Sequence record: NC_041937.1
Source of the DNA: Escherichia phage V18
Direction: 5' to 3' (one strand)
DNA: 64,000 nt
The notes beneath the pieces were generated by a model. It had not been told where the DNA came from. It saw only the letters and a program-made list of their open reading frames with translations, and did no database searches. Made by a program: the position numbers and the translations under genes. Below, piece by piece: positions 277 through 2,344 of the stretch. How positions within the stretch are numbered: the first letter of the stretch is position 1; every line of letters starts with the position of its first letter.

Positions 277-1598
277 TGCATCAGATCAAAACAACACTGT
301 ACGCACTGAACAAAGATGGCAGCTACCAACAGTGGAAAGTATTCACGGATGGTGATAAGGTTATCGTAGAGTTTGGCAAGCTTGATGGTAAATTGCAATA
401 CAAAGAGACGATCTGCACACCTAAGAACGTTGGTCGCGCCAATGAAACTACAGCTGAGCAACAGGCCGAGCTGGAAGCGATCAGTAAGTGGGAAAAACAG
501 GTCCGACTCGGGTACGTGGAGAGTATGGAAGATTGTGAGCAAGGTGTTGATCTTTTACCAATGTTAGTGCATGACTACCTGAAGCGTGGCAAGGCACTTA
601 AATTACCTTGCTGGATCTTGCGTAAGTTAGATGGCCTTCGTCTACTTGTTGTTTTCCAGAATGGTGAGCCTAAATTTATTTCCCGTGGTAATAAATCCTA
701 CCCTATTCAAGGAAAGCTTTTGGAGCAACTTCGCTCTTTCCACCTAACCACCGGGATTAAACAGCTCGACGGAGAGCTCTATATTCATGGTCTGCCTCTG
801 CAGAAAATAGTGTCTCTTGCTAAACGGTGGCGCACACAGGAAGAAATTCAGGCCGAGATCGATAAAGACTACGAGGCAGATAAAAAACGCCGTCAGGCTG
901 CGATTAAGGCAGGTTTAGCAACATACAAAAACTTCAACAAGATGGATATTCCTGTTGATGTTGATCCTGTTCGTGATGATTTGCGTTACGGAGGGTACTG
1001 CAGCTACGACCTAGAGTATCATATTTTCGATATCCCTAGCGATAAGGTGTGGTGGGATCCTGAAACAGAGTCTGGTCGCTGTAAGGATCTTATGGAGGCA
1101 AACGGTGCTATTACTTCTTTGATGCTTGATCATATTAAGGTTGTTGATGCAGAGCTTGCATATACGGTTGATCGGTGCGAAGAGTCTGTTGGTATATTTA
1201 TGTCTGAAGGATATGAAGGTACCATTATGCGTAACTTCTGTGGTAAATATGAGTATGGTCAGCGAACATCTGAAGCATTGAAATGGAAAAAGTTCAACGA
1301 CGCAGAGGTGAAAGTTATTGACGTTGAGAAAGATAAGAATGATGAAGGTGTTCTTATCTGTGTTGACAAGGAAGGTGTTGTTGTTAAAATGAAGATGAAA
1401 GGCACGCACGAGGAGCGTAGCTATGACAGGATGCAGGAAATGATCGGCAAGTTTGTCACCTTCAAATATCAAGCAAGGACAGAAGACAACAACTACCAAT
1501 TCCCGGAGTGGTGGGATGCTGTATGCGTCAGAAAATCCGCAGAATATGCAAAACATGATGATTCGTTGGAAGAGTGGTTTAATCGGAGGTTTAAATGA
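276..1598 (+). CDS. ATP-dependent DNA ligase
   Basis: 440 aa; adenylation motif KLDG (ILRKLDGLRLL) and downstream EGTIMR...WKK block resembling T7/T4 ligase motifs. Confidence 0.8.
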   Translation: MHQIKTTLYALNKDGSYQQWKVFTDGDKVIVEFGKLDGKLQYKETICTPKNVGRANETTAEQQAELEAISKWEKQVRLGYVESMEDCEQGVDLLPMLVHDYLKRGKALKLPCWILRKLDGLRLLVVFQNGEPKFISRGNKSYPIQGKLLEQLRSFHLTTGIKQLDGELYIHGLPLQKIVSLAKRWRTQEEIQAEIDKDYEADKKRRQAAIKAGLATYKNFNKMDIPVDVDPVRDDLRYGGYCSYDLEYHIFDIPSDKVWWDPETESGRCKDLMEANGAITSLMLDHIKVVDAELAYTVDRCEESVGIFMSEGYEGTIMRNFCGKYEYGQRTSEALKWKKFNDAEVKVIDVEKDKNDEGVLICVDKEGVVVKMKMKGTHEERSYDRMQEMIGKFVTFKYQARTEDNNYQFPEWWDAVCVRKSAEYAKHDDSLEEWFNRRFK

Positions 1599-2074
1599 AG
1601 CTAGATAAAAATGTACAATTGAGAGCATTTTTTTCGATGATTTCACACTCAGAAGGTACTGACAGGTATGGTGGCGAAGATGCTTCGTACCACATCCTTG
1701 TTGGTGGAAAATACATAGAGGATCTCAGCAGGCATCCCGGTATTTATGTCAAATTAAGACCGGGCCTTACCTCTTCAGCATTTGGCAGATACCAAATTCT
1801 GGAGAAATACGCTAAGCATTACATGAAGCAGCTTGGCTTAAGAGATTTTGGTCCGGCAAGTCAAGATGCCATAGCAAAACAGTTGATCCGCGAATGTAAA
1901 GCCCTTGATGACATTTATGAAGGAAGGATCCGTTCAGCTATCTATAAATGCCGTAGCCGTTGGGCAAGTTTCCCACCACCACCGGGGGCTGGTAAACTGT
2001 ATGATCAGCGTGTAGAAAACATAGAGAAGATGCTGGACGTCTTCCGAAAAGCCGGAGGCACAGTACTGGATTAA
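1595..2074 (+). CDS. endolysin, lambda R-like lytic transglycosylase
   Basis: 159 aa alignable by eye along its length to lambda R (SEGTD, VGG, GRYQ, KQLGL-DF-P-SQDA, WAS-PGAG, AGGTV). Confidence 0.85.
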   Translation: MKLDKNVQLRAFFSMISHSEGTDRYGGEDASYHILVGGKYIEDLSRHPGIYVKLRPGLTSSAFGRYQILEKYAKHYMKQLGLRDFGPASQDAIAKQLIRECKALDDIYEGRIRSAIYKCRSRWASFPPPPGAGKLYDQRVENIEKMLDVFRKAGGTVLD

Positions 2075-2137
2075 TGGTTGACATAACCACACGGACGTGG
2101 TATTGTCACCTCATAAGATGTTCAGGAGGGTTTAACC

Positions 2138-2344
2138 ATGAAAGATTTTCTGTTGGCAATTTTGTTCATGGCGGCATGTCTGGCCTGTGGTGTAGTGTTT
2201 GCAGGTGAAACAGCGTATCTTGTCGATGTATATCGGGACAATGGTAAACGTATTTGCCTTTATGAGACAAGCCAAGGTGAGCTCTACGAGCTTGTGAAAC
2301 AAGGCGAGGCAGGTTCCTGCCCTCGCACCCATTTCTTTGAATAA
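2138..2344 (+). CDS. small protein with N-terminal hydrophobic signal-like segment
   Basis: 68 aa, RBS AGGAGG upstream, N-terminal LAILFMAACLACGVVFA. Confidence 0.4.
   Translation: MKDFLLAILFMAACLACGVVFAGETAYLVDVYRDNGKRICLYETSQGELYELVKQGEAGSCPRTHFFE

Follow-up and report, generated by a model that had tools for sequence, protein, structure and literature searches.

Scattered lysis genes in Escherichia phage V18: an rV5-type endolysin beside a homing-endonuclease deletion scar and the gene of a predicted exported protein of 68 amino acids

How an endolysin encoded among replication genes, apart from the other genes of lysis, is to be understood, and what the small gene that follows it contributes, are the questions raised by a locus in a 64,000-nucleotide stretch of Escherichia phage V18 (NC_041937.1; hereafter the window). 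The window belongs to a Vequintavirus (rV5-like) genome, with DNA identities of 95-99% to more than 100 coliphage/Vequintavirus genomes, and its layout is the ordinary, already published arrangement of the rV5-like coliphages, with lysis genes scattered in the manner of T4. An earlier note on this DNA had placed the endolysin gene among replication genes, and it is indeed flanked by the ligase gene within a rightward replication-gene block, as published for rV5 (PMC3606486). Its observation that no holin or Rz/Rz1 pair lies nearby also holds: an endolysin without a linked holin was described for rV5 in 2013 (Kropinski et al., 2013; PMC3606486), and the same layout was restated for LL12 (PMC6658697) and Gotham (PMC7471380). 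The missing lysis cassette has thus been known since 2013, and over 100 annotated genomes repeat the pattern. We estimate at about 0.8 the probability that the locus is explained by an rV5-type endolysin with scattered lysis genes, an overlap with the ligase gene left by a deletion, and an independent exported 68-aa protein (Table 1).

Table 1. Features of the window that bear on the endolysin locus and on holin candidates
Feature	Position	Strand	Basis
ATP-dependent DNA ligase ORF, 440 aa, chimeric 3' end	276..1598	+	PHROG 114, Pfam, BLAST
Deletion junction and remnant 3' end of the homing-endonuclease gene (HEG)	1497..1598	+	Alignment with EduardKellenberger and JEP1
Soluble lambda-R-type (GH104) lytic transglycosylase endolysin (predicted), 159 aa, HEG-linked allele	1595..2074	+	PDB 1AM7/3D3D, PHROG 90, no TM/SAR
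Predicted sigma-70-type promoter: TTGACA, 17-nt spacer, TATTGT, TG extended -10	2078..2106	+	Consensus scan; conservation
Shine-Dalgarno AGGAGG, 8 nt before the ATG of the 68-aa gene	2124..2129	+	Sequence reading
Predicted cleavable Sec signal peptide, residues 1-22, MKDFLLAILFMAACLACGVVFA, followed by GE	2138..2203	+	67 homologues
Predicted mature periplasmic mini-domain of ~46 aa, with stop codon	2204..2344	+	Alignments, AlphaFold2 model
Junction of the 815-nt deletion	23180..23181	+	BLAST of rV5 segment, tblastn of ORF129
123-aa protein, two TMDs, ~70-aa hydrophilic C-terminal part; holin candidate	39365..39736	-	BASEL annotation, TM scan

The endolysin found no match in the Pfam and NCBIfam family libraries, Pfam PF00959 missing the threshold of E<=0.01, and the 68-aa protein has no Pfam, NCBIfam or PDB relative and no PHROG function; PHROGs and the PDB served in place of these libraries. 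The endolysin matched PHROG 90 ('endolysin') at E=1e-40 and aligned over its full length with PDB 1AM7 and 3D3D at E~1e-30; with phmmer against the PDB, residues 5-158 matched residues 4-154 of the lambda lysozyme chain of 1AM7 at E=6e-31. The catalytic glutamate of the N-terminal S-E-G-T motif, Glu19 in lambda R, is retained at residue 20 ('hSEGTd' opposite 'wSEGTd' of 1AM7). Both enzymes are soluble, single-domain proteins of the same size with ~45% identity, the phage V18 protein differing by a 5-residue insertion (PPP...KL) in its 'LPGAGYGQ' region and by the location of its gene outside any S-R-Rz/Rz1 cassette. The identification as a lambda R-like transglycosylase made in the earlier note is thereby upheld as to family (GH104/lambda-R type), and transglycosylase chemistry is predicted. 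Lytic activity has been reported for LysECP26, the endolysin of an rV5-like phage (Park and Park, 2020, as cited in PMC8229158). At least three diverged endolysin alleles occur in the genus: that of the window is 100% identical to the endolysins of EduardKellenberger and JEP1, 67% identical to the rV5/Gotham allele (rV5 gp89) and 46% identical to that of ECO111 5-P, and represents the rarer, HEG-linked allele.

At the corresponding locus of rV5, the gene order, the promoter and the 68-aa protein (ORF90, 100% identical) are the same, the lysin gp89 being the diverged allele; the window differs further in having neither a ligase-endolysin intergenic region nor gp129, the holin proposed for rV5. 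The site between the genes for DNA ligase and a small secreted protein, in the rightward replication-gene block, is the normal one for the endolysin gene in Vequintavirus. We infer that the enzyme is produced together with the replication proteins and then waits harmlessly in the cytoplasm, from which an unlinked holin would release it. A literature search on Vequintavirus transcriptomics gave nothing usable. The spanins are likewise dispersed: those of rV5, PVP-SE1 and CB7 adjoin the terminase, outside any lysis cassette. In the RefSeq record of rV5 they are annotated at 60872-61554; one of the two translations contains a TMD and the second a lipobox. They form an Rz/Rz1-type i-/o-spanin pair beside the large terminase (TerL), ~10 kb upstream and outside the window. 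In phage T4, too, the lysis genes are dispersed (e, t, rI and pseT.3/pseT.2), and Spackle is a periplasmic early protein. T4 resembles the window in having an endolysin unlinked to holin and spanins, among non-late genes, and a small signal-peptide protein expressed from a host-type promoter; the 68-aa protein resembles T, RI and Spackle in neither sequence nor fold, and the analogy is one of organisation only.

The overlap of the endolysin gene with its upstream neighbour has a more local history. The ligase ORF matched PHROG 114 (ATP-dependent DNA ligase; E=4e-80) and the Pfam families DNA_ligase_A_M and OB_2. Given that rV5 proper carries a diverged ligase allele, which renders a global alignment to rV5 misleading on the ligase side, junctions were mapped instead by BLAST against several relatives. 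Positions 1-1504 of the window corresponded to the ligase of Gotham and EduardKellenberger, and positions 1497-3500 to the 3' end of the EduardKellenberger HEG, the endolysin gene and then the genes that follow. The ORF is thus collinear with the ligase of its relatives through nt 1504 and consists from ~1505 of the last ~90 nt of the HEG, the junction site (1497-1504) displaying an imperfect microhomology of 8 nt. Free-standing homing endonucleases inserted between conserved genes, such as those encoded by the seg and mob genes of T4, are known from 'intronless homing'. The present locus resembles this in that an HNH/HEG ORF, inserted between ligase and endolysin, overlaps the endolysin start and goes together with a divergent form of the neighbouring gene; unlike intact free-standing HEGs, that of the window persists only as its last ~90 nt, fused to the ligase. 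A free-standing HEG overlapping the endolysin start was lost for the most part through a deletion of 831 nt, by which, as the alignment shows, its final ~30 codons came to continue the ligase reading frame. The remnant carries the endolysin RBS (GGAGG) and the ATGA in which the start codon of the endolysin (ATG, at 1595) shares nucleotides with the stop codon of the upstream ORF. Of the translational coupling to the ligase gene proposed in the earlier note, the ATGA overlap stands; the comparison with relatives identifies it as an accident of the deletion, that is, a scar particular to this sequence and not a conserved design. The ligase-endolysin spacer of the relatives contained no sigma-70-like or T4-late-like promoter. 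At this locus one sees the gain of a homing endonuclease, its association with a divergent form of the endolysin and the stepwise decay of the endonuclease gene.

Could this overlap, together with the other differences that set the window apart from its relatives, be an artefact of sequencing or assembly? The ligase/HEG junction was found in one piece in none of 50,697 phage records, the junction of the second large deletion described below is equally absent from all of them, and two frameshifts in the window, at ~2608 and ~29960, each reflect the shortening of a homopolymer run from CCC to CC by comparison with the aligned relatives. Against an artefact, the ligase/HEG junction is in frame, falls at a short microhomology and leaves the RBS and the ATGA overlap intact. 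Moreover, the same gene, which is 717 nt long when complete, in EduardKellenberger, has independently decayed in part in JEP1, where a 291-nt remnant is left, so such deletions are plausible in nature. An artefact is considered unlikely.

Downstream of the endolysin gene, the 68-aa ORF (2138-2344) is a real, conserved gene: it matched PHROG 4641 end to end (residues 1-68 of 68; E=4e-28) and recurs at 95% identity or more in ~118 phage records. Some records label it 'putative membrane protein.' The promoter predicted ahead of it begins 4 nt past the endolysin stop. The rV5 genome has the identical site, which carries the annotation 'Sigma70-type promoter; P90,' a promoter is predicted at the same site in Gotham, TTGACA-type promoters occur at the matching position in 4MG, KB57 and A5-4, and terminator hairpins precede that position in Kashira and A5-4. 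The 68-aa gene thus appears to possess its own sigma-70 promoter, conserved in position across genera.

The signal-like N-terminus that the earlier note had seen in the 68-aa protein is predicted to be of the cleavable type. Its hydrophobic segment spans residues 4-22 (Kyte-Doolittle 2.74). Among 67 homologues, the N-terminus comprises 19-40 aa and is hypervariable in both sequence and length, and in ~60 of the 67 it is closed by an AxA-type signal-peptidase motif immediately before the conserved domain. These features suggest that the signal peptide is cleaved off and does not remain as a membrane anchor, and they suggest a topology in which the protein ends up in the periplasm. The possibility of a lipoprotein, with MAAC/LAC as lipobox, was rejected because most homologues lack Cys14 and Cys17. 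Within the mature domain, T25, Y32, C40, Y42, G47 and C61 are invariant in the homologue alignments, and the two cysteines are presumably disulfide-bonded. An AlphaFold2 model of this domain has four beta strands (mean pLDDT 78). Expressed from a host-type promoter of its own and provided with a strong RBS, the gene would hence give rise to a ~46-aa beta mini-domain in the periplasm after cleavage of the signal peptide, and ORF90 would represent a subfamily-wide family of predicted exported mini-proteins.

The profile of the 68-aa family retrieved only noise (E>1) from PDB sequences. With the AlphaFold2 model as query, Foldseek against PDB and BFVD gave nothing informative: apart from the protein itself, the matches were some uncharacterised phage proteins and small beta barrels of a generic kind. 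In the PDB only such barrels were matched, e.g., a ribosomal L2 domain, with a best E of 0.065. An exhaustive HMM search with the mature domain yielded 26 cluster representatives at E<=0.001, nearly all of them family members of 65-86 aa, besides a few bacterial proteins that hold tandem copies of the domain and two very long proteins that matched over numerous short segments and are probably spurious. The domain pattern Y-x2-G-x2-K-x-C-x-Y-S-D-G...C-P is found in tandem in bacterial envelope proteins with MORN repeats, one of which gave a borderline PG-binding match, and this association points to an envelope-binding module.

The suggestion that the 68-aa protein is an unconventional lysis partner of the endolysin was not supported, in view of its own promoter, its separate module, the lack of co-variation and the cleavable signal. 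The divergent endolysin module ends at about nt 2086, approximately at the promoter, where identity to Gotham climbs from ~70% to at least 95%. The 68-aa protein is 100% identical in rV5 and Gotham, where the endolysin is 67% identical, and again in ECO111 5-P, where the endolysin is 46% identical. The homologues in Seunavirus, Mydovirus, Septuagintavirus-type and Serratia relatives stand at the corresponding point of the block that runs from ligase to exonuclease, and a lambda-R-type (GH104) endolysin gene was found within 3.5-5 kb of them at none of seven non-Vequintavirus loci; for Septuagintavirus and Certrevirus, an M15-type peptidase and a SleB-like amidase have been reported, which are peptidoglycan hydrolases of other kinds. 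As the homologue keeps its place without a GH104 neighbour and remains identical beside diverged endolysins, the protein probably does not act together with the endolysin and is most likely, by these comparisons, an independent early periplasmic factor. Within the genus Vequintavirus the two genes do remain adjacent (~118 records), and a genus-specific functional link is therefore possible.

As to its role, the 68-aa protein, being small, predicted to be exported and expressed from a host-type (early) promoter, has a resemblance to T4 RI and T4 Spackle that is functional only. With the fold searches uninformative, an envelope-acting or exclusion factor, e.g., one for superinfection exclusion in the manner of T4 Spackle or T5 Llp, is proposed tentatively and by analogy alone. 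It is somewhat less probable that the family constitutes a new early periplasmic effector across Vequintavirinae, acting either as a Spackle- or Llp-like exclusion factor or as a periplasmic sensor that tunes a holin. A lysis-timing regulator in the manner of the T4 antiholin RI, which would bind the periplasmic part of a holin and modulate its triggering, agrees with the small size, predicted export and solubility of the protein, its position next to the endolysin in ~118 Vequintavirus genomes, the presence of rIIA and rIIB genes in members of the subfamily and the lack of an identified holin in the literature on rV5, LL12 and Gotham. It is nonetheless improbable: no sequence or fold similarity to RI, Spackle or any known lysis protein was detected (Pfam, PHROGs, NCBIfam, PDB and Foldseek against PDB), the gene belongs to a different recombination module, with a promoter of its own, and keeps its position in genera that lack a nearby GH104 endolysin gene, and the signal resembles a cleavable AxA signal peptide more than a SAR domain.

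Much less probable still is that the 68-aa protein itself forms the membrane lesion, as a holin or pinholin-like protein with a single N-terminal TMD. Its segment of membrane type is indeed the only clear one in the vicinity of the endolysin, and the label of 'putative membrane protein' would agree. A TM scan of the + strand of positions 1-6000 found no further plausible ORF with a TM segment; the sole additional match scored at the borderline and fell in the frameshifted end of an HNH ORF (2354-2641). However, the hydrophobic segment is the variable part of the protein and is followed by the cleavage motif, and an export signal that is cleaved cannot serve as the TMD of a holin, which would have to be retained in the inner membrane. 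What is conserved is instead an exported, Cys-containing beta domain; there is no charged cytoplasmic tail, the gene is not linked to one for a GH104 endolysin at the seven loci from other genera, and co-variation with the endolysin across relatives was not seen. Nor does the protein resemble a spanin, having neither a lipobox Cys nor a TMD with a coiled-coil, and its mature part is a 46-aa beta fold in the model.

That the endolysin exports itself, as an enzyme of the signal or SAR type for which no canonical holin is needed, would accommodate the lack of a holin identified in rV5, LL12 and Gotham, but is the least probable of all, since its N-terminus (MKLDKNVQLRAFFSMISHSEGT) is polar and without a hydrophobic stretch, the alignment to soluble lambda R begins at residue 5 and the catalytic Glu is already reached at residue 20. 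No signal peptide, SAR or TM segment was detected, and no 19-residue window reaches a Kyte-Doolittle value of 1.6; by sequence criteria the endolysin is soluble and cytoplasmic, and thus holin-dependent.

Where its holin might be encoded is a question that concerns a therapeutically used phage group. The candidate proposed in the rV5 paper is ORF129 (PMC3606486). BLAST of the rV5 segment and tblastn of ORF129 found no copy in the window, in which a deletion of 815 nt removes the homologues of both rV5 ORF128 and ORF129; ORF129 is present in 116 phage records, and the deletion is shared by no phage record. If the phage is viable, the absence of gp129 argues against its being an essential holin. 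The label 'putative glycosidase' given to the ORF128 homologue found no support in its sequence, and rV5 ORF68, upstream of the spanins, was rejected as a holin for having no TMD. No small TM protein encoded in the window could be placed in a recognised holin family (PHROGs, Pfam, NCBIfam). The only annotated holin candidate that remains in the window, and a putative one, is the 123-aa protein encoded on the opposite strand, which is assigned to PHROG 13090 (no function assigned), is present in 117 phage records and has a counterpart in WalterGehring, bas51_0117, that is annotated 'putative holin' in the BASEL genomes.

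The first 6 kb of the window share 95-99% nucleotide identity with over 100 myophage genomes of the genus Vequintavirus (rV5-like), the best matches being VB-EcoM-WM, YP-6, JEP1 and EduardKellenberger, and the remainder is collinear with the same genomes. The window opens at approximately 69.9 kb in rV5 coordinates, inside a rightward transcription unit of replication and nucleotide-metabolism genes. The enzyme encoded there was recognized in the earlier note as lambda R-like, and this identification, with its exact ORF boundaries, is upheld by the PHROG assignment (see table), an end-to-end alignment with lambda lysozyme (PDB 1AM7, E=6e-31; 3D3D was also matched) and retention of the catalytic S-E-G-T motif of that lysozyme. 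A transmembrane (TM) scan found no hydrophobic N-terminal segment in the endolysin, and hence it is predicted to be a soluble, holin-dependent enzyme of the lambda R type. At least three endolysin alleles, with 100, 67 and 46% protein identity to that of the window, occur within this one genus between flanking DNA that is approximately 98% identical; the 67% allele is the common endolysin of rV5 and Gotham, and the 46% allele is that of ECO111 5-P.

Features of the window and their coordinates
Feature	Position	Strand	Remarks
Endolysin	1595-2074	+	159 aa; PHROG 90 'endolysin', E=1e-40
Promoter	2078-2106		TTGACA, 17 nt, TATTGT, with TG; consensus match; P90 of rV5
68-aa protein	2138-2344	+	PHROG 4641, 68/68 positions matched
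815-nt deletion	junction 23180-23181 (23139-23261)		removes homologues of rV5 ORF128 and ORF129
BASEL 'putative holin'	39365-39736	-	123 aa, two TM domains; 117 records

The endolysin was also thought to be translationally coupled to the ligase gene. The start codon of the endolysin does overlap the stop codon of the upstream 440-aa ligase ORF (ATGA), but this arrangement is the scar of a deletion. The ligase ORF comprises 1284 nt in Gotham and 1266 nt in rV5, with a spacer of approximately 120 nt before the endolysin in both. Between ligase and endolysin, EduardKellenberger carries a 717-nt homing-endonuclease gene whose stop overlaps the endolysin start (ATGA), and in JEP1 this gene is reduced to a 291-nt remnant. 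By BLAST and alignment, positions 1-1504 of the window map to the ligase and 1497-3500 to EduardKellenberger sequence from the 3' end of its endonuclease gene onward; the window therefore has the EduardKellenberger arrangement minus 831 nt, namely the last 18 or so ligase codons, the spacer and some 615 nt of endonuclease sequence. The junction falls at an imperfect 8-nt microhomology (region 1497-1598), across which the ligase continues in frame into the final 30 or so endonuclease codons, and the ATGA overlap derives from the endonuclease gene. None of 50,697 phage genomes held this ligase/endonuclease junction in one piece. EduardKellenberger, JEP1 as the intermediate, and the window represent successive stages in the decay of a free-standing homing endonuclease, and the ligase overlap is an accident of that decay. 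The endolysin allele of the window was found in five records only, each with the endonuclease gene or its remnant, an association pointing to co-conversion or to marker exclusion driven by the endonuclease.

The lack of a holin or Rz/Rz1 pair close to the endolysin was borne out by an ORF and TM scan, which found no plausible plus-strand ORF with a TM segment within 6 kb besides that of the 68-aa protein. Likewise, the rV5 lysin Gp89 was described as 'an obvious lysin' for which a holin homologue was not found (PMC3606486), a statement repeated in the announcement of Gotham (PMC7471380). The spanin pair of CB7, rV5 and PVP-SE1 adjoins the large terminase gene, outside any lysis cassette (PMC7344957). 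In the rV5 RefSeq record, two 'Rz-like spanin' genes occupy 60872-61554 on the opposite strand, adjoining TerL; the translation of one has an N-terminal TM domain and that of its partner a lipobox (LLCGC). This position is approximately 10 kb before the window start. The initial observation is thus confirmed as real, and the layout is the one normal for rV5-like phages, whose lysis genes are dispersed as in T4; it is already known and published. What remains of value is ORF90, the rV5 counterpart of the small gene, as a secreted protein of the whole subfamily, and the search for the holin of this group.

With respect to that search, none of the small membrane proteins of the window matched a recognized holin family. 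This includes the protein named 'putative holin' in the BASEL genomes, where holin calls were based on TM content according to the authors (PMC8594841); a terminator-like hairpin (approximately 39768-39789) precedes its gene. The candidate of the rV5 paper, ORF129 (78 aa, two TM domains, basic C-terminus), is carried by 116 records and has no copy in the window, where its homologue is lost to an 815-nt deletion shared by no other record. If this phage is viable and the approximately 73 kb outside the window hold no copy, gp129 is not the essential holin. No sequence support was found for the label 'putative glycosidase' given to the neighboring ORF128 in the BASEL genomes.

The 68-aa protein was proposed in the earlier note as an unconventional lysis partner of the endolysin. 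Its gene has its own promoter, which begins 4 nt past the endolysin stop codon and is followed by a strong ribosome-binding site; the rV5 RefSeq record likewise marks a 'Sigma70-type promoter; P90' immediately ahead of ORF90, whose own annotation reads 'contains transmembrane domain'. In 4MG, KB57 and A5-4, the homologues have a TTGACA promoter at the same position, within otherwise unrelated spacers, and terminator hairpins lie just upstream in Kashira and A5-4. Near nucleotide 2086, identity to Gotham climbs from roughly 70% to 95% or more; the endolysin, whether or not accompanied by the endonuclease gene, forms one recombination module, and the promoter with the small gene forms another. 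In rV5 and Gotham, the 68-aa protein shows 100% identity to that of the window, against 67% for the endolysin; in ECO111 5-P the values are 100% and 46%, and where the endolysin matches at 100% the small protein shows 98.5% identity. At seven loci outside Vequintavirus (Seunavirus 4MG, Mydovirus KB57, Serratia phage Kashira, A5-4, Pectobacterium phage POP18 and two metagenomic contigs), no GH104 gene was found within 3.5-5 kb of the homologue, which by the gene tables of the other six lies inside the ligase-to-exonuclease block (POP18 is unannotated). The peptidoglycan hydrolases reported for Septuagintavirus and Certrevirus are different ones, an M15-type peptidase and a SleB-like amidase. 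In 4MG (locus L005, 2184-3422) and KB57 (locus L006, 2176-3423), the small gene is preceded by genes for a 63-aa membrane protein (PHROG 1130), a 54-aa protein and a 296-aa lipoprotein (PHROG 200), which look like a small envelope-directed cluster; in Vequintavirus, the endolysin takes the position directly upstream instead of these genes. A role as the holin itself was dismissed, since a signal peptide cleaved at the predicted AxA-type site could not act as a holin TM domain. Given its own promoter, separate module, lack of co-variation, position kept without GH104 and predicted cleavable signal, the 68-aa protein is probably not a partner of the endolysin.

The signal-like N-terminus ascribed to this protein was substantiated. 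The segment is strongly hydrophobic by TM scan, and alignments of the homologues revealed an N-terminal part of 19-40 aa, variable in length and sequence, with a signal-peptidase I motif of the AxA type (AHA, AFA, ANA, ASA, VFA and others) at its end in approximately 60 of 67 sequences. A conserved domain of approximately 45 aa follows, with invariant T25, Y32, C40, Y42, G47 and C61. A lipoprotein was rejected because the two signal-peptide cysteines are not conserved. AlphaFold2, supplied with the family alignment, predicted a signal helix and a beta domain of four strands (mean pLDDT 78), for which Foldseek returned no informative match in PDB or BFVD; a profile of the family against PDB sequences gave only noise, and the mature domain has no Pfam description. 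When 1.8 billion representatives were searched exhaustively with an HMM of this domain, only 26 clusters were recovered, nearly all of the same 65-86-aa family. The exceptions (P0135, P0137 and P0142) have tandem copies: in two proteins of approximately 515 aa, a signal peptide, MORN repeats and a hydrophobic segment precede two C-terminal copies, and one of this pair shows a borderline PG_binding_1 match; the third is a secreted 150-aa protein with two copies. Collectively, these features describe what is probably a Sec-exported, disulfide-bonded periplasmic mini-protein. A genus-specific or RI-like periplasmic regulatory role is unlikely. The approximately 210 homologues on phage-sized contigs, all without a Pfam domain, extend throughout the Vequintavirinae and related unclassified phages. 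The most likely reading is that of an independent exported mini-protein, probably an early periplasmic factor with the cell envelope as its target, although an envelope or exclusion role is assigned a probability of only roughly 0.3-0.4.

Downstream of the small gene lies an HNH gene (PHROG 5200) that is unbroken in EduardKellenberger and rV5 (447-465 nt); here, a CCC-to-CC difference near 2608 splits it into two frames (2354-2641 and 2605-2817), which probably reflects either a sequencing error in a homopolymer run or recent pseudogene formation. A second such frameshift near 29960 (ORF 29878-30075) shortens the homologue of rV5 ORF155 (PHROG 13956; 87 aa, N-terminal TM domain). Both calls are relative to the relatives aligned here, and because they look like homopolymer errors, the two large deletions found in this record alone need confirming. 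An ORF-poor stretch of approximately 2.3 kb (32470-34820) between convergent plus- and minus-strand gene blocks corresponds to the 'non-coding' box on the rV5 map; within it are a perfect inverted repeat of 18 nt (33981-33998/34114-34131) and several short direct repeats. The entire window gave no tRNA genes and no Rfam matches. Approximately 20 unannotated GenBank records titled 'Campylobacter phage' (MG0656xx) are 95-100% identical to E. coli rV5-like phages, and their host label looks doubtful.
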